Shown: piece after piece, positions 8,788 to 64,000 of the stretch
How the letters are laid out: the number at the start of each line of letters is the position of its first letter
How positions within the stretch are numbered: the first letter of the stretch is position 1
Source of the DNA: Escherichia phage T5
Length of the DNA stretch: 64,000 nt
Strand: one strand, 5' to 3'
Sequence record: NC_005859.1
Notes under the pieces: model-generated
Seen by the model: only the letters and a program-made list of their open reading frames with translations
Told to the model about the DNA's origin: nothing
The model's database searches: none
Position numbers and translations under genes: made by a program

Positions 8788-9567
8788 ATGAAAATCGAAA
8801 TTCCAACACAATGTCCCTCTTGTGGTTCTAAGCTAGATCTTGTCAACGGACAATTATTCTGTCGTAATAAGTCCAACTGTCCAGCGCAATCAAGTAAGTT
8901 AATTGAGAACTTCTGTACAAAAATGAAGTTAAAGGGCTTTGGCCCGAAAACTATTGAGAAGCTGGAGCTGACGAAGATTTCAGAACTATTTTACCTAACC
9001 GAAGAAGATTTGGTTAGAGCCGTGGGTAGCAAGGTTGCCGCTAAGTTAATTAGCGAATTAAATACTAAAGTTCGCGGAGACATTGACTTTGGTTCAGTTC
9101 TCGGTTCTTTAGGAATCCCTCTAATTGGAGAGGTTGCAGCAAAGAAATTATCCCAAAATTGCACTAGCTTTCAAGATGTGAAGGCTGACGGCAAGGCTGG
9201 AGAAAACTATAAAGCCTGGCTAAATTCCCCACAAGGCAAGGATGTAATCGAATTACCGTGGAAATTCTCAAAGGGTATTAAGGGTGCTAAAGCTGAGGTC
9301 ATCATCACTGATGGTCTAGTAGCCCAGCCAAATGGAATCACGGTGTGTATTACCGGATCTTTGCAAGATTTTGCAAATCGAACGGATGCAACAAACTATT
9401 TAGAAGGTCTAGGATATACGGTTAAGAAATCCGTTACCAAAGACGTCAAATACCTAATCTGTGAGGATGAATCGAAGCGTTCTTCCTCATCTTATAAGAA
9501 AGCCGAAACGAATGGGATAGAAATCCTGTCGATTAAAGAACTATTGGAGAAAAATAATAATGTCTAA
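8788..9567 (+). CDS. NAD-dependent DNA ligase, C-terminal part (Zn finger, HhH, BRCT-like)
   Basis: Cys4 motif CPSCGS...CRNKSNCPAQ typical of LigA zinc finger; separate ORF about 200 bp after the N-terminal part. Confidence 0.75.
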   Translation: MKIEIPTQCPSCGSKLDLVNGQLFCRNKSNCPAQSSKLIENFCTKMKLKGFGPKTIEKLELTKISELFYLTEEDLVRAVGSKVAAKLISELNTKVRGDIDFGSVLGSLGIPLIGEVAAKKLSQNCTSFQDVKADGKAGENYKAWLNSPQGKDVIELPWKFSKGIKGAKAEVIITDGLVAQPNGITVCITGSLQDFANRTDATNYLEGLGYTVKKSVTKDVKYLICEDESKRSSSSYKKAETNGIEILSIKELLEKNNNV

Positions 9568-10327
9568 ACTGAACTGGAACGTAGAAGGTGTAACCGAGTC
9601 TCTGAAAGCAAAAGCCACTGCTCTGGGTGTTGATGTAATCTCTCAAGAACAAGTAGCTGCTATCGCTGCTGAACTGGCTGCTGAAACTGGCAAAGACGTT
9701 ACCGCTCGCTCTGTTGGCTCTAAGCTGCGTAAAGAAGGTTTCGAAGTACAGAAAGCTAACGAAGTACAGAAATCCCCGTGGACTCCTGAGCAGGAAGCTG
9801 AACTGGTTGATTTCCTGAACGCTCATGCTGGTCAGTATACTTATGCTGAAATCGCTGCTGCTGTAGCTGGTGGTCAATTTGGTGCTAAGCAGGTACAGGG
9901 TAAGATCCTGAGTCTGGAAATGACAGCATCTGTTAAGCCGACCGAAAAAGCTGCCGCTGTTCGTTCCTTCACTCCGGATGAAGAAACTGACTTTGTTAAT
10001 CAGGTTGTTGCTGGTGCTACTATTGAAGCTATCGCTGCTCACTTCGGTCGCAATATTAAGCAGATCCGTGGTAAAGCTCTGAGTCTGCTTCGTGAAGGTC
10101 GTATCGCGGCTATGCCGGTACAGGAAACTTCAAGTGCTAAAACTCGTGAAGATCTGCTAGAAGGTCTGGATCTGGTTAACATGACCGTTGCTGAGATCGC
10201 TGAGAAAACTGGTAAGTCTGAGCGTGGTGTTAAATCTATGCTGTCTCGTCGTGGTCTGGTTGCTAAGGACTATGATGGTGCCGCTAAGCGTGCTAAACTG
10301 GATGCAAAAGCTGCGGCTGCTGAATAA
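9560..10327 (+). CDS. hypothetical abundant protein with internal repeated HTH-like modules
   Basis: 255 aa; strongly optimised codon usage; repeated ~45-aa units (TPEQEAELVDF / TPDEETDFVNQ / MTVAEIAEKTGKSERGVKSML). Confidence 0.7.
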   Translation: MSKLNWNVEGVTESLKAKATALGVDVISQEQVAAIAAELAAETGKDVTARSVGSKLRKEGFEVQKANEVQKSPWTPEQEAELVDFLNAHAGQYTYAEIAAAVAGGQFGAKQVQGKILSLEMTASVKPTEKAAAVRSFTPDEETDFVNQVVAGATIEAIAAHFGRNIKQIRGKALSLLREGRIAAMPVQETSSAKTREDLLEGLDLVNMTVAEIAEKTGKSERGVKSMLSRRGLVAKDYDGAAKRAKLDAKAAAAE

Positions 10328-20038: not shown

Positions 20039-21857
20039 GACACTAAAATTTAGTAACGTTATGTCTTACGGTAAGGACATCGTAATTCATTTCGATAAGA
20101 ATCCAGTTACTCAACTAATTGGGGGCAATGGGCTAGGGAAATCCACCATCGCTACGGTTATCGAGGAGTTGTTTTATAACAAGAACTCTCGAGGTATCAA
20201 GAAGGATGCATTGTTCTCTTGGAATGCCCCTAAGAAAGAATACGATATGCACGCTTACTTCTCAAAAGATGAAGATGAGTATGAATTGCATAAAGTAGTT
20301 AAATCAACTGCTAAAGTTACACTCATTAAGAATGGAGAAGATATTAGTGGGCATACGGCAACCCAAACATATAAGATGATTGAAGAGATTATGGGTGGTG
20401 ACTTTCAAACATTCACCAAACTAATTTATCAATCAGTGGGTTCCAACCTAGATTTTCTAAAAGCAACGGATGCAACACGTAAGGCTTTTCTTGTTAACTT
20501 GTTCAATCAAGAGCAATACAAAGAAATGTCGGAAACTATTAAGGCTGACCGTAAAGAAATAGCAAATACCTTAAATAATTTGCAGGGCCAGATGGCTGTA
20601 ATTACGAAAATCCTTAATGGGAAAAATAATCTAGGAACTTTGCAGGAACCTGTAGAAGTACCGGAGTTTGATGAAGAGCCATTAGCACAAGAACTTACTG
20701 AATCGAAAATTAAGGCGGCATTAGCCAAGTCTCAAGAGGCTAATATTACTAAGTTGCGTAATTTGGACAAAGCTGTACAAGTTGCCGAACAATCTTTCGA
20801 ACCTTTCAAAAATTTGCCCGCGCCCACCGACCAAAATGAAGAGATCTCGAGTGTTACGCGTGACCTAACGATTGTGACCTCACGTGCGAGCGAAGTTAAG
20901 AAACGTTATCAGAAGTTCAAGCAAGAGGCTTCAAATACTGAATGTCCTACTTGCGGTACTCATCTGAATACAACTGCTGCTCAAAAAGCCATGGATATGG
21001 CTAGAGTAGAATATGATCCTCTGTTCAAAGAGAAGCAATCTCTTGAAGCTAAGCTAGAACAGTTGAAGAAAGAACAACTTGAGTACGTTGCGTATACTAG
21101 AGCAAAGGATGCTTTGGATAAAGCAGTGGTAGCTAGAGACGAGTTCAAAAATTCAATGAGTGATGCTTCTTTTGAAGAACTCAATGTGCAAATCCTACAG
21201 GTGCAAATCCGACAATTAGAGCAGGAAATCGCTGATGGCCGTTCTAAGGTTGCAATTGCCAAAGAGCATAATGCAACTGTCGAATTAGCCAATGCAAAAT
21301 ATAAAGCAAAGCTAGAACAGATTGAGAAAGCAGAAGCAGAAATGACTGAGATTACCTCCAAACTGGATGGAGTATCAGAAGCTGTTGCTGATCTCGATAT
21401 TCTAATTGCTGCATTGAAAAATCTGGTGGGGTATAAACTAGAGCATAGTGTGAAAGTATTTGAAGAGCTAATTAATAAATATCTTTCTATTATGACTGGC
21501 GGTAAATTCGCACTTGGATTTGAACTTGATGAAACAAAATTACAAGTAGTAATCTTCAATGATGGAAATCGTACCAGTATGGAGAACTGCTCTACTGGTC
21601 AGCAAAGTCGAATTAATCTAGCAACCCTGTTAGCTATTCGGATGCTGTTAACATCTATTAGTAAAGTTAATATTAATCTTCTATTCCTTGATGAAGTAAT
21701 TAGCTTTATTGATACGAAAGGACTTGATACTCTCGTTGAACTATTAAATGAGGAAGAAAGTCTAAATTCTATCATTGTTTCTCATGGGCATACGCATCCA
21801 TTAGCTCATAAGATTACTGTCAAAAAAGATGCAGAAGGATTTTCCTACTTAGAATAA
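20019..21857 (+). CDS. SbcC/Rad50-like ATPase (T5 D13-like)
   Basis: Walker A GGNGLGKST; long coiled-coil middle; signature/Walker B region LFLDEV; start set at internal ATG 20019 (track start 19938 overlaps D12 by 100 nt). Confidence 0.8.
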   Translation: MSKITIKTLKFSNVMSYGKDIVIHFDKNPVTQLIGGNGLGKSTIATVIEELFYNKNSRGIKKDALFSWNAPKKEYDMHAYFSKDEDEYELHKVVKSTAKVTLIKNGEDISGHTATQTYKMIEEIMGGDFQTFTKLIYQSVGSNLDFLKATDATRKAFLVNLFNQEQYKEMSETIKADRKEIANTLNNLQGQMAVITKILNGKNNLGTLQEPVEVPEFDEEPLAQELTESKIKAALAKSQEANITKLRNLDKAVQVAEQSFEPFKNLPAPTDQNEEISSVTRDLTIVTSRASEVKKRYQKFKQEASNTECPTCGTHLNTTAAQKAMDMARVEYDPLFKEKQSLEAKLEQLKKEQLEYVAYTRAKDALDKAVVARDEFKNSMSDASFEELNVQILQVQIRQLEQEIADGRSKVAIAKEHNATVELANAKYKAKLEQIEKAEAEMTEITSKLDGVSEAVADLDILIAALKNLVGYKLEHSVKVFEELINKYLSIMTGGKFALGFELDETKLQVVIFNDGNRTSMENCSTGQQSRINLATLLAIRMLLTSISKVNINLLFLDEVISFIDTKGLDTLVELLNEEESLNSIIVSHGHTHPLAHKITVKKDAEGFSYLE

Positions 21858-39303: not shown

Positions 39304-39708
39304 TTACGCTTTTGAGCTACGAAAAGTATCTAGGTGGAACACTGTCTGGTTGATCCAAGAATCAAACGCAGCAGAGTTCTGCATAAGCATTACAGCATTA
39401 TCACGACTAAATGGAACTTCAGTAGCAGGATCAGCATCTGTTTCAATCAGCATCAGTTTTTCAACGTCACCTACAGTCAAACCAGTCCAACCTTTAATCG
39501 CAGCATCAACGAAAGCTTCAATAAACTTATCATCATCCTGTACCTGAATCAAAGTACCATTAACCCACTCGTCACGCTTAGCAGAGGTGATAACTCGTTT
39601 AGAAGTAGCACGAGACATATAATTAAGCTCTAGCTTAAAGTTTGGCATACCTGGGTATGAAAGAGTGACAGTACGAGTTTCTAAAGTAATATCTTTTAAG
39701 TTAATCAT
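39304..39708 (-). CDS. hypothetical tail-associated protein
   Basis: 134-aa ORF between tail tube and chaperone genes. Confidence 0.5.
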   Translation of the reverse strand: MINLKDITLETRTVTLSYPGMPNFKLELNYMSRATSKRVITSAKRDEWVNGTLIQVQDDDKFIEAFVDAAIKGWTGLTVGDVEKLMLIETDADPATEVPFSRDNAVMLMQNSAAFDSWINQTVFHLDTFRSSKA

Positions 39709-48867: not shown

Positions 48868-50184
48868 TTATTTACCACGGGAAATAGAGTAAATTCCATA
48901 GCGGAGCGCATCACAAAGGTGAGAGTTAGCATCATGACGTGGTTTTTCACGTGATAATTTCTCTTCGCCTTCTTGGAAGTCCCACTTATAGTTCTGCAAT
49001 GCATGAATTAAGGAGGAACATGAAGCATCTACAATAATCTTGCCCTGCTGGAATAGCGCTTGCAGGCATGCTAGACCATCTAGGACAGACTTTTTAGCTG
49101 GAGCAGATGCAATTTCATGCTCATATGCTAAATCCTGGCGGAACTGAGCTGCTGCAGAGTCAACAAAAATACGATCAACTTTATAACGATCTATACAGTG
49201 CTGAATATAAGCAGCATGCTGAGCTGTAGTTTTCTCCGCCTGCTGGTACTCTTCTAATACATAGTAAGTATCCGTATCGTAATGATATTTAATAGTAAGA
49301 ACTGCTGTAGGATCACGATAACCAACGTCAATACCAAGCAACGTTTCGAATGCTTCATCATCTTTAAAGAAGTGACGCATACCTTTGAGGTCTTTAACAT
49401 GATCGATAGCATTAAAGGTATCAAAGATCTGGCCCTCGAATACAGAGAAGTCAGCCTCGTATTCTTGGCGGAAGTAGTTTTTACTAACTGTACGGCGTGC
49501 TTCCTCAATATCATTCAAGTCAGCACGTGGGTTATCACGATATGTACCATGAATAGATACCCAGTTAGGCAACGTATCATCAAATCCGTAGGCGTAAAAC
49601 TCTTTAAACCAGTTACCTCCACGAGGGGTGGAAATAAATAGAGCCTTAGAATTAGGTTTATCCAGAGTAGGACGCAGCTGAACCCTGAAAGCATCACCAC
49701 CCACATCGGAAATTGCCGCTTCGTCAAAGATGATAAAATCATATGAACGTCCAACTGCGGAGTCAGCCTGCGCCGCAGAAGCTAGTTTGAAGAGCGAGCC
49801 GTTTGCCAGCTCAATCTCTTTATCTTTGGCGTTTTCACGTTCGGTTTGTAGGCCATACTTCTTGATAAGACCACGAATCTGTGACCAACCAATGTTAGCC
49901 AGTGAGTAGTTAGGGGCAACTACTAGTACCTTCACATTAGGTTCCAGCAATTTTAGGAACCCAAGTGTGTATGCGATGAAGGATTTGCCTACACGACGTG
50001 ACACACACGCTGTTACAAAACGATGTCTAGGGTCCTCTAGGGCATTAATAATCGCTATTTGAGGACCATTAGGTGTAATACCTTCTTGTGCTAGTATTCC
50101 TGAAACAGGTAGACGAAAGAAACGTTTATCTATCCCGAAATCGATAACATCTACTGTATTAACGTAGGGTCTTGATACTTCCAT
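48868..50184 (-). CDS. terminase large subunit
   Basis: 438 aa; Walker A CVSRRVGKS; Walker B IIFDEAA; C-terminal RNaseH-like nuclease region. Confidence 0.85.
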   Translation of the reverse strand: MEVSRPYVNTVDVIDFGIDKRFFRLPVSGILAQEGITPNGPQIAIINALEDPRHRFVTACVSRRVGKSFIAYTLGFLKLLEPNVKVLVVAPNYSLANIGWSQIRGLIKKYGLQTERENAKDKEIELANGSLFKLASAAQADSAVGRSYDFIIFDEAAISDVGGDAFRVQLRPTLDKPNSKALFISTPRGGNWFKEFYAYGFDDTLPNWVSIHGTYRDNPRADLNDIEEARRTVSKNYFRQEYEADFSVFEGQIFDTFNAIDHVKDLKGMRHFFKDDEAFETLLGIDVGYRDPTAVLTIKYHYDTDTYYVLEEYQQAEKTTAQHAAYIQHCIDRYKVDRIFVDSAAAQFRQDLAYEHEIASAPAKKSVLDGLACLQALFQQGKIIVDASCSSLIHALQNYKWDFQEGEEKLSREKPRHDANSHLCDALRYGIYSISRGK

Positions 50185-53740: not shown

Positions 53741-53850
53741 TTGGGAAATCTCGAAATTTCATAAGATTACACATGAAGGTGTGTCCACTGCCTCCGGCGA
53801 AAATACTTAGTCTGCTAACCGCCACCCCCGTTACTATTACCATGCTAACT

Positions 53851-53887
53851 GTTTCACCCTGCAACCATTTTAATTGCAGGGTGAAAC
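53851..53887. other. perfect 14-bp-stem hairpin at late / pre-early junction
   Basis: gtttcaccctgcaa - ccattttaa - ttgcagggtgaaac; no adjacent U-tract. Confidence 0.6.
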
Positions 53888-53904
53888 AATTTCAACTTTA
53901 ATTA

Positions 53905-57157: not shown

Positions 57158-57253
57158 AATAATAAAACTCCATTAAAGGGATTAAAAAACGTTTGTTATT
57201 GGCAATATTGCCAAATATAACGCCTTGAATAATAGGCGTTATAATTTGCAACA

Positions 57254-57451: not shown

Positions 57452-57507
57452 TTTAAAACTCCAGTCAAAGGGAAATTATAGTGGGGAATATTCCCCACTA
57501 ATTAAAT

Positions 57508-61684: not shown

Positions 61685-61849
61685 ATGGTTATTTTTCGAG
61701 CTATTCTGGCAGGTATCTTGGGCGCTATTCTGACCCTTTTTGCTACCGCTTACGGTATTCAAGATTCTTATTGTGGTTTAGTAAATACTAAACCTATGGT
61801 TATTATTGGCGCGGGTATCGCTGTATTTTCTTATCTGCTGGGCTGCATG
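61685..61849 (+). CDS. small membrane protein (54 aa)
   Basis: hand-translated MVIFRAILAGILGAILTLFATAYG...; RBS gggag; not in ORF track. Confidence 0.35.
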
Positions 61850-62734: not shown

Positions 62735-62938
62735 ATGAGCAATAAAATTATTGTGACCAAAACTACCACAATGGTAGACGTTTTTTATGTGCCCGATACG
62801 CCGGAGAATCGGGGAGCGGTCGAGCGGGGCGAGTATGATAGCGTTATTTATGATGCCGATGGTTATTATCAGCATTTGGTCGATTCCTACGGGGAAGAGG
62901 AGAAGATCACGCATCGATTACCCGAGGGGGATTTATGA
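62735..62938 (+). CDS. hypothetical acidic small protein
   Basis: 67-aa ORF. Confidence 0.5.
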   Translation: MSNKIIVTKTTTMVDVFYVPDTPENRGAVERGEYDSVIYDADGYYQHLVDSYGEEEKITHRLPEGDL

Positions 62939-63048
62939 AACGATGGTTTAATCACTGGTATAAACGGTTTTTAGTACGGCATCGCAAGTCTAGACAGCAA
63001 GATGATTGGCGGGAAATGGCAAAGCGTAACAATTGCCCACTTCTCTGA
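62935..63048 (+). CDS. small basic protein (37 aa)
   Basis: hand-translated MKRWFNHWYKRFLVRHRKSRQQDDWREMAKRNNCPLL; ATGA overlap with upstream stop; followed by terminator. Confidence 0.35.
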   Translation: MKRWFNHWYKRFLVRHRKSRQQDDWREMAKRNNCPLL

Positions 63049-63055
63049 TAACCGA

Positions 63056-63077
63056 CGGGGATCAGCTCCCCGTTTTT
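63056..63077 (+). terminator. rho-independent terminator closing the plus-strand cassette
   Basis: cgggga-tcagc-tccccg hairpin followed by TTTTT. Confidence 0.7.
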
Positions 63078-63191
63078 CACGCCTCCAGTTAAATCCCCCT
63101 TTGTTTTAGTATCCCCATCAAAATTAAACGCGTTAGAATGCGATCTAGGACGTTTTAGGCATATATTAGAATTATTCACTGCGTAGGAATA

Positions 63192-63320
63192 CTGTATAAA
63201 TATACAGTAGGATAACCTGGGGATAAGTCTGTTGATAACGCTTCAAAATGGCTAGGATTTTGTCAAGGCGAATCGTGCTGTTGATAAGTCTGTGGATAAC
63301 TTAAATAACAGTGTTTCTCA
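63192..63320. repeat. right arm of inverted repeat, with DnaA-box cluster and 16-bp palindrome
   Basis: palindrome ctgtataaatatacag 63192-63207; DnaA-box-like 9-mers (rc TTATCCACA at 63291-63299; variants at 63209-63239 and 63279-63287); tail cttaaataacagtgtttctcac mirrors the left arm. Confidence 0.65.
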
Positions 63321-63323
63321 CTT

Positions 63324-63480
63324 CCGTTTTTAAATACGAATCATTATCATTCGTATTCCGCTTTTTAAATGAGAATCATTCCGCTTTTTAAATGAGAATC
63401 ATTTCACTTCCTGAATAGTTCTCATTCCCTTTCTTAAATGAGAATCATTATCATTTGCATTTCACTTTTTAAATGAGATT
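63324..63480. repeat. array of ~22-bp direct repeats (CCGCTTTTTAAATGAGAATCATT)
   Basis: two perfect tandem copies 63358-63403 plus three degenerate copies; each holds the small dyad AATGA-n3-TCATT. Confidence 0.75.
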
Positions 63481-63509
63481 GATTCTCATTATCATTCGCA
63501 TTCAGGCGA

Positions 63510-63527
63510 GCAGGGCAATTGCCCTGC
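63510..63527. other. perfect 18-bp palindrome
   Basis: gcagggcaattgccctgc followed by gcttttg. Confidence 0.7.
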
Positions 63528-63533
63528 GCTTTT

Positions 63534-63756
63534 GTGCAAATCCGACATTTGCCCCCATGGATTACGCGTGGGCGTGTATGTGCAAATCCGACAATTTTTG
63601 GTAGTGTGCGAATCCGACCCGAAAAATTTTTATAGTGTGCAAATCCGACAATGAATTTTCCCAAAAACTCCAGCAATCACGAACTGCGTTCGAATCCTGT
63701 GGAATTAGCTAGAGTATGTGCAAATCCGACATGTGTTGAGATGTGCGAATCCGACA
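63534..63756. repeat. iteron-like array: six copies of 14-bp GTGC(A/G)AATCCGAC(A/C)
   Basis: copies at 63534, 63580, 63606, 63646, 63718, 63743 with irregular 25-72 bp spacing, all same orientation, non-coding. Confidence 0.8.
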
Positions 63757-63892
63757 AGATTTTTGTGACTTCGATGGGAGGGTGTGTGATTGTATGGGTT
63801 TGAGGGGAAGATGAGAGAGCGAGAGAAATTTGGGAGGCTAGAAGGATATGGGCGCAGGATTGGTGCGGAGCACCTGATTTGCGGGGATTTTG

Positions 63893-63936
63893 GGGAAGAG
63901 TTGAGATAATTTGGGAAGATTTGAGATAGGTGCAGA
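63893..63936. repeat. purine-rich tandem repeat (TTTGGGGAAGAGTTGAGATA-like, 2 copies)
   Basis: within a strongly G+A-skewed plus-strand tract 63770-63940. Confidence 0.5.
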
Positions 63937-64000
63937 AAAAGTAAAATTTTATTAGCTAAAGGGGGCAAAATAGCTTGACAAGTGAAAATTTCTGTGGCTC

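Follow-up and report, generated by a model that had tools for sequence, protein, structure and literature searches.

Palindrome J of bacteriophage T5: a nick-recognition site that probably lies within a selected stem-loop

Introduction

Two-step DNA injection and site-specific nicks are among the oldest unexplained features of T5, a classical model phage. The nicks are introduced ahead of encapsidation and closed again once infection has occurred. Close to the right end of the T5 genome, a short and perfectly symmetric sequence stands between two arrays of repeats and next to one of these nicks. The question raised by this locus is whether its symmetry serves a purpose and, if so, whether it is read in duplex DNA, as by a dimeric protein, or in a folded single strand. 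Here, we compare the palindrome, its nick and its surroundings among T5-like phages and weigh the explanations that the comparison allows. The whole stretch of T5 DNA that was analysed (64,000 nucleotides of NC_005859.1) is called the window, and positions refer to it unless a record is named.

Results

Position and annotation of the palindrome

Positions 63000–63997 are 100% identical to 9219–10216 of AY692264 (T5 st0) and 99.8% identical to 9140–10136 of AY587007 (T5 ATCC 11303-B5); each record matches this interval twice, once per terminal repeat. Since position 1 of AY587007 aligns at 53782, the right terminal repeat takes up the final ~10.2 kb of the window. The 3′ limit of the window is the right genome end of T5 to within a few bases, which places the palindrome ~470 bp from that end.

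The palindrome itself, GCAGGGCAATTGCCCTGC, is exactly as an earlier note on this DNA had described it: all of its bases are self-complementary, its centre is AATT and it occurs once within the window (Table 1). The same note had placed it between two repeat arrays, and this is also correct. On its left, the last unit of a family of ~23-nt TTAAATGAGAATC repeats ends at 63481 and a TCATTATCATTCGCATTC unit ends at 63503; on its right, six TGTGCRAATCCGAC iterons begin at 63533.

Both the palindrome and its overlap with a nick are already annotated in GenBank and are hence known. AY587007 has 'palindrome J' features at 9650–9666 and 121263–121279, overlapped by 'major single-stranded nick 1, 7.9%' and 'nick 5, 99.7%', for which the sequence given is CCCTGCGC. 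In AY692264, the entire region is non-coding and labelled 'injection stop signal'. Our locus, palJ, is thus that of T5 palindrome J with major nick 1 (7.9%) and nick 5 (99.5–99.7%), described in AY587007 (Wang et al. 2005), in AY692264 and AY543070 (Ksenzenko et al.) and in the iss region of Heusterspreute et al. 1987. The earlier note missed the palindrome J annotation, as well as the + strand match to a rho-independent terminator presented below. The Davison preprint (10.1101/866236) includes palJ in a list of many 'Repeat Region 3' repeats and, together with several other palindromes, as a candidate site of hypothetical A1/A2 cleavage; apart from this candidacy, neither the T5 annotation nor the preprint gives palJ a function.

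Table 1. Features of the palJ locus in the right terminal repeat (window coordinates; a dot marks a feature without strand).
Feature	Position	Strand	Source and remarks
Last unit of the left repeat family, TCATTATCATTCGCATTC, bordering the palindrome	63486–63503	+	Repeat family D5; direct repeat C copy 4 / palindrome I
Extended stem-loop and T tract, AGGC-GA-GCAGGGC AATT GCCCTGC-GCTT TTGT	63504–63537	+	Terminator scan and RNA fold
18-bp perfect palindrome GCAGGGCAATTGCCCTGC, 'palindrome J' (palJ), right-terminal-repeat copy	63510–63527	.	Sequence and AY587007 features
Nick recognition sequence, + strand CCCTGCGC, minus strand 5′-GCGCAGGG-3′	63522–63529	−	AY587007 nick features; 6-nt overlap with the right arm
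Major single-chain interruption, cut between 63530 and 63529, giving 5′-pGCGCAGGGCAATTGCCCTGC...	63529–63530	−	AY692264 annotation
First TGTGCAAATCCGACA iteron ('direct repeat D copy 1')	63533–63547	+	Annotation and iteron search; constant distance from the nick

One record differs within the left arm. Where the window has positions 63513–63515, AY587007 (9650–9666) reads GCAGGCAATTGCCCTGC, with one G fewer, which makes a 17-nt imperfect palindrome. The perfect 18-mer is agreed by the window, AY692264 and a 121,750-bp T5 genome in IMG/VR, and the missing G is probably a sequencing error in a G run or a strain difference.

As a bare 18-bp palindrome, palJ is statistically weak and not rare by chance: first-order Markov shuffles of the window had a mean of 0.35 perfect palindromes of at least 18 bp, and 27% of the shuffles had at least one. 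What takes palJ beyond chance is that it is conserved and covaries in relatives. A longer perfect palindrome of the window, TAGTGGGGAATATTCCCCACTA (22 bp, 57479–57500), and one of 16 bp, TTGGCAATATTGCCAA (57199–57214), are also in the terminal repeat, in the Repeat Region 1/2 area judging by their position.

The right arm as a nick site

The earlier note had guessed at T5 and pointed to its site-specific nicks, and both points are supported: the DNA is that of T5, 2 nt separate an annotated major nick from the palindrome, and the right arm matches the nick consensus. The 'major DNA single-chain interruption' at complement 9748..9749 of AY692264, mapped through the 100% match, falls at 63529/63530. 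It is annotated at 7.9% in the left repeat and at 99.5–99.7% for the right-repeat copy, and by this annotation the minus strand is cut as 5′-...CAAAA/GCGCAGGGCAATTGCCCTGC...-3′ (a slash before or within a nick motif marks the cut), 2 bases outside the palindrome.

Six bases of the right arm and the GC that follows make up the nick consensus site common to all four distinct major nick sites of T5. On the minus strand, these read A/GCGCAGGGC at 7.9 and 99.7%, A/GCGCAGGGG at 18.3%, A/GCGCAGGGC at 32.6% and G/GCGCGGGC at 64.7%; on the + strand, each of the four has (C)CC(T)GCGC. The consensus R/GCGCRGG is attributed to Ksenzenko et al. (PMC3517423), and the nicked strand of T5 is the minus, or 3′–5′, strand (PMC10644984; PMC13250531). 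Read on that strand (5′-R/GCGCRGG-3′), the palJ site agrees with the consensus as A/GCGCAGGG, with R at + coordinate 63530. The left arm, on the other side, is an inverted copy of the nick-site core, broken in T5 by two bases (GCGAGCAGGG).

Elsewhere in the window, the 7-nt consensus is found on the minus strand at 20824, which is the 64.7% nick, and at 49774 (49767–49774, G/GCGCAGGC, ~88% of the genome), and on the + strand at 61808 and 63851, both of them in the terminal repeat and on the strand without nicks. The match at 49774 and the two + strand matches have no annotated major nick, so sequence alone does not define a nick; that the consensus by itself is insufficient for nicking was noted earlier (PMC3517423).

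GC-rich intergenic hairpins built on the CAGGGC/GCCCTG motif enclose two of the four distinct major nick sites. Besides palJ, the 32.6% nick (39659–39686 of AY587007, outside the window) lies inside an annotated terminator-like hairpin, AAGCCCTG...CAGGGCTT, that follows a gene of the minus strand. The other two sites, at 18.3% and 64.7%, fall within coding DNA, where no comparable hairpin involves the nick motif; because these are half of the major sites, a hairpin is not needed for nicking, and as a general requirement of nick sites it is ruled out. The iteron does not qualify as a general partner of nick sites either, with TGTGCAAATCCGAC-like copies near only two of the four.

Two observations concern the 64.7% site (20816–20824). 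The motif falls in a Pro-Ala-Pro coding stretch. T5 reads CCCGCGC there, whereas CCTGCGC, with CCAC after it, is the reading in Eps7, in SSP1 and in a Klebsiella Sugarlandvirus-like phage of 69% overall identity; in this alignment, the synonymous positions of the motif look constrained. About 360 bp to the right of the nick, within the D13/SbcC-like gene, there are two tandem + strand iteron copies (TGTGCAAATCCTAC at 21185–21198 and GGTGCAAATCCGAC at 21200–21213), where chance alone would give ~0.5 such matches per window. The two copies code for the repeated peptide VQILQVQIRQ, are kept in Eps7 and SSP1 and absent in a Klebsiella relative, and may be coding coincidences.

Conservation in T5-like phages

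Homologous segments were collected from IMG/VR genomes, metagenome contigs and GenBank phages, a second scan of IMG/VR adding no loci, and conservation was scored on the 31 distinct T5-like sequences that align over 63150–63800. The earlier note had asked whether close relatives lose the palindrome or mutate it freely; among these 31 sequences they do neither. The block from 63510 to 63549, which covers the palindrome, the nick and the first iteron, is the best conserved of the region (0.97–1.0 against a regional mean of 0.87), and its immediate flanks are conserved at 0.67 and 0.60.

The nick side reaches furthest. Three variant lineages depart from CCTGCGC at the homologous position, and two of these variants still match R/GCGCRGG; all others, and Sugarlandvirus with them, have CCTGCGC unchanged; GCGC/TT(T/A)TGTGC(A/G)AATCCGACA is kept in all relatives, again with Sugarlandvirus. 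The Klebsiella Sugarlandvirus relatives (~72% identity) have neither the left arm nor a stable hairpin and keep CCTGCGC/TTAT followed by the iteron. In these alignments, the nick site with the first iteron is the deepest conserved module, to which an inverted copy of the nick-site core has been added, and held complementary, in Markadamsvirinae.

The left arm of many phages mirrors the nick-site half over as many as 11 nt. Many phages, BF23 and NR01 among them, carry a perfect palindrome of 22 bp, GCGCAGGGCAATTGCCCTGCGC, which was seen at a minimum of 16 loci and bears the nick consensus preceded by A (A/GCGCAGGG) on both strands. Relative to the T5 type, this BF23-type form amounts to a 3-nt deletion that perfects a quasi-palindrome.

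Mechanical open reading frames do cross the palJ site. A protein-coding reading is nonetheless ruled out: indels of +1, −3, +5/6 and −12 nt in relatives break the frame, and the curated T5 records have no CDS there. In Salmonella phages NR01 and SE3, an annotated homing endonuclease gene on the minus strand (932–1471 of segment L095 and 728–1267 of segment L096, respectively) starts 33 nt to the right of the nick position, within the iteron array, in a stretch that is non-coding in T5.

Another annotated palindrome of this region, 'palindrome D' (TACTGTATAAATATACAGTA, 63190–63209), adjoins the DnaA boxes and is conserved at 0.92–0.93 in the same 31 sequences. Nineteen of its 20 positions agree with TACTGTATATATATACAGTA, the LexA/SOS-box consensus of E. 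coli. LexA or SOS is not mentioned in the Davison preprint (10.1101/866236).

Compensatory changes and loop length

The 22 distinct core variants have two-sided, pairing-restoring changes at three of the eight stem pairs, and no one-sided change to another standard pair was seen among them; none of 500 column shuffles reached three two-sided pairs. An A:T pair became G:C (GCGGGGGC...GCCCCCCGC) in FFH1, a single isolate with homopolymer runs. A G:C pair became A:T (GCAGAGC...GCTCTGC, variant GCGCAGAG) in fp01 and, independently, in phiP4, and another change, G:C to T:A (GCAGGTC...GACCTGC), is present in two contigs from metagenomes only. Complementarity was kept by these three independent two-sided changes, which support the hairpin idea of the earlier note. 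Every compensatory change is Watson–Crick on both strands, including the G:C to T:A double transversion, which has no wobble intermediate.

The loop is far less restricted. It is AATT in most phages, AAATT in two lineages, 9–10 nt long in several Epseptimavirus and 12 nt long in GSW6, and a stem of 7–8 bp is kept throughout these loop lengths of 4, 5, 9–10 and 12 nt. A stem-loop in single-stranded nucleic acid fits all variants, and the alignments favour it over a fixed-spacing operator or a cruciform.

The distance between the arms bears directly on the other structures that the earlier note had offered. Its symmetric operator is not supported: half-sites 4 nt apart in T5 are 5, 9–10 or 12 nt apart in relatives that keep the stem, and because the arm spacing varies in this way, which a fixed dimer site would not tolerate, any site of fixed geometry is disfavoured. 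Its cruciform is weakened. The 18–22 bp of symmetry around AATT in the T5 and BF23 types speak in favour of it, but the arms are short (7–9 bp), the stability calculated with DNA parameters is modest and the spacers of Epseptimavirus are long, for which reasons a cruciform is disfavoured as a conserved property.

In a broader form, the same idea would make palJ a dyad-symmetric duplex site for a dimeric protein, either an operator or the place of Davison's hypothetical A1/A2 restriction-like cleavage, which would release first-step-transfer (FST) DNA and leave cohesive ends. The perfect palindrome with its AATT centre is what such a site would look like, the 22-bp form bears the nick consensus on both strands in at least 16 related loci, and palJ is among Davison's candidates (10.1101/866236), in the iss region, to the right of the DnaA boxes and in both terminal repeats. 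Nevertheless, lineages that keep both arms have half-site spacings enlarged by 1, 5–6 and 8 nt, unlike a classical type II-like site; the T5 + strand has GCGAGC and not GCGC; and T5 nicks are reported on one strand only (PMC10644984; PMC13250531). We regard this explanation as very unlikely.

Its most far-reaching version, that palJ is a cis-acting break-and-join site of two-step infection, seems to us highly improbable. Nicks at both borders of the 22-bp form would leave each terminal repeat with a staggered break whose 5′ overhangs, 22 nt long, are self-complementary. If true, this break would free the first-step DNA and give cohesive ends that circularise one genome length, as in Davison's restriction-site model. 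In a variant of this reading, the nick and hairpin together would themselves be the physical injection stop.

Concerted changes in a palindrome do not have to be selected, and hairpin-templated (template-switch) mutation can also be a source of them, notably of the double transversion. Carried to its end, this argument would leave palJ without a function of its own: snap-back or template-switch synthesis at a recurrent nick would have produced the inverted copy and would keep it perfect, as a mutational by-product of the strand-displacement synthesis that starts from the nick. Both arms do change in concert with no intermediates seen, and the 22-bp form, the T5 type minus 3 nt, is a quasi-palindrome made perfect. 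However, two genera, Tequintavirus and Epseptimavirus, have kept the left arm while flanks and loop turned over heavily, and not all other nick sites have gained inverted copies, so that we give this explanation a low probability.

We prefer a stem-loop under two constraints. The right arm would be held by sequence recognition at the nick, the left arm by pairing, and the loop would be free. Such a model would account for near-invariant arms, for right-arm changes that are mirrored on the left, and for the fact that, of the three right-arm changes, two lie outside the 7-nt nick consensus or at its degenerate positions.

Hairpin stability and the terminator reading

It is probable, in our judgement, that palJ is a nick-recognition site embedded in a selected stem-loop. 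This stem-loop would be placed where FST DNA ends, immediately ahead of the iteron array. Judging from sequence and predicted folding, its likeliest role would be that of a + strand rho-independent terminator, or RNA hairpin, for rightward transcripts, a suggestion that we make tentatively and to which we give roughly one chance in three. A second possible role would be for the new 5′ end at the nick to fold back on itself.

The terminator scan found palJ on the + strand only, as a 7-bp stem with six G:C pairs and the loop AATT. The RNA fold of 63498–63540 agrees with this orientation (−22.6 kcal/mol, z −3.4 on the + strand against −16.4 kcal/mol, z −2.2 on the minus strand); on the + strand, the stem is lengthened by AGGC/GCUU flank pairs and followed by UUUUGUG. 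Hairpins of relatives have −18 to −26 kcal/mol with z from −3.9 to −6.2, and the homologous site in phage HdH2 bears an independent annotation, 'putative transcriptional terminator, -16.70'. A terminator on the minus strand was rejected, the stem having no T tract after it there, and the reading as a known RNA family was rejected as well: palJ has no Rfam match, and the two sub-threshold matches elsewhere in 62900–64000 are chance matches.

In its GC-rich stem of 7–9 bp and its 4-nt loop, palJ resembles rho-independent terminators. A T tract follows on the + strand but is short, with TTTT or, in some relatives, TTAT. palJ differs from such terminators also in its almost invariant stem and in having no open reading frame directly upstream. 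A GC-rich stem of at least 5 bp with a loop of 3–8 nt is present in T5, and the loop is 9–12 nt in Epseptimavirus. The T tract of T5 (GC, then TTTTGTG) is above the scan threshold; in Gostya9 and one other relative (L021) it is TTAT, with the hairpin kept. Conservation of the T tract cannot be credited to termination, because it is equal in Sugarlandvirus, which has no hairpin. Near-invariance of the stem sequence is unusual for a terminator. Finally, the nearest upstream open reading frame of the + strand, which ends at 63048, has a terminator of its own in palindrome C (63055–63074), a stronger and more canonical one, ~450 nt before palJ. Our literature search found no data that map 3′ ends of T5 transcripts.

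A hairpin at 53850–53888, GTTTCACCCTGCAA...TTGCAGGGTGAAAC, has the CCCTGC/GCAGGG core in common with palJ. We considered it as a mark of the repeat boundary and rejected it: it is the annotated putative terminator downstream of dmp, 69–105 nt inside the repeat.

If palJ were an ordinary intrinsic terminator, its GC-rich stem might hold the nick motif by coincidence, with hairpin and nick functionally uncoupled. In a genome of 39.6% GC such as this one, terminator stems are where GC-rich 8-mers accumulate, the 32.6% nick is likewise inside an annotated terminator hairpin and palJ passes the terminator scan, all of which a coincidence would explain. It would explain less well why the stem is almost invariant across Markadamsvirinae next to flanks at 0.60–0.67, why the nick motif persists without a hairpin in Sugarlandvirus and why in many phages the left arm mirrors the nick-site half over as many as 11 nt. 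For us, such a coincidence is an improbable explanation.

The stem-loop could also act in DNA. A frayed or displaced minus strand, 5′-pGCGCAGGGCAATTGCCCTGC(GC), would fold back on itself, and the + strand likewise, producing a branched structure at the FST boundary that could contribute to the arrest of injection, shield the 5′ end or serve as a boundary mark. The nick lies directly at the border of the (extended) palindrome, to the point that in the BF23 type the perfect 22-bp palindrome begins with the base that follows the nick; the compensatory changes, double transversion included, are Watson–Crick on both strands; and the site lies in the annotated injection stop signal, within ~50 bp of the estimated FST shear point (about 9618 in AY587007). 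Against this stands a stability of only about −8 to −9 kcal/mol with DNA parameters (z ~ −1 in a 43-nt context), and branching of relaxed duplex DNA is costly in energy. Sugarlandvirus also lacks the hairpin. Rogers et al. in 1979 reportedly described T5 mutants deficient in the interruptions that were viable and retained two-step injection, which counts against such a role. A hairpin acting in DNA at the nick is, in our view, unlikely.

Discussion

Comparison with other nicked genomes helps to place the proposed stem-loop with its embedded nick site. Like T5, phiKMV-like viruses and Pseudomonas phage tf have strand-specific nicks within a short consensus; their consensus sequences differ from that of T5, and a conserved palindrome enclosing the nick is not described there (PMC3517423). 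palJ also resembles the nic sites of rolling-circle origins and oriT, where a strand-specific nick adjoins a hairpin-forming inverted repeat and iterons. Unlike those sites, the palJ nick is outside the stem and not in the loop, and no Rep or relaxase is known to take part. The origins of T5 map elsewhere than palJ (10.1101/866236).

Because the element and its overlap with a nick were already in GenBank, our result is a refinement and not a discovery. palJ is the meeting point of the 7.9% nick and the edge of FST DNA, between the repeat arrays of the injection stop. The comparison among relatives provides a clean genetic handle on this point, in which the constraint on the right arm would be that of a nick site and the constraint on the left arm that of pairing alone, with a free loop. 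Since the two arms appear to be constrained differently and Klebsiella relatives have the nick site without the hairpin, arm mutants and compensatory mutants would separate the functions of nicking, hairpin formation and termination in T5.
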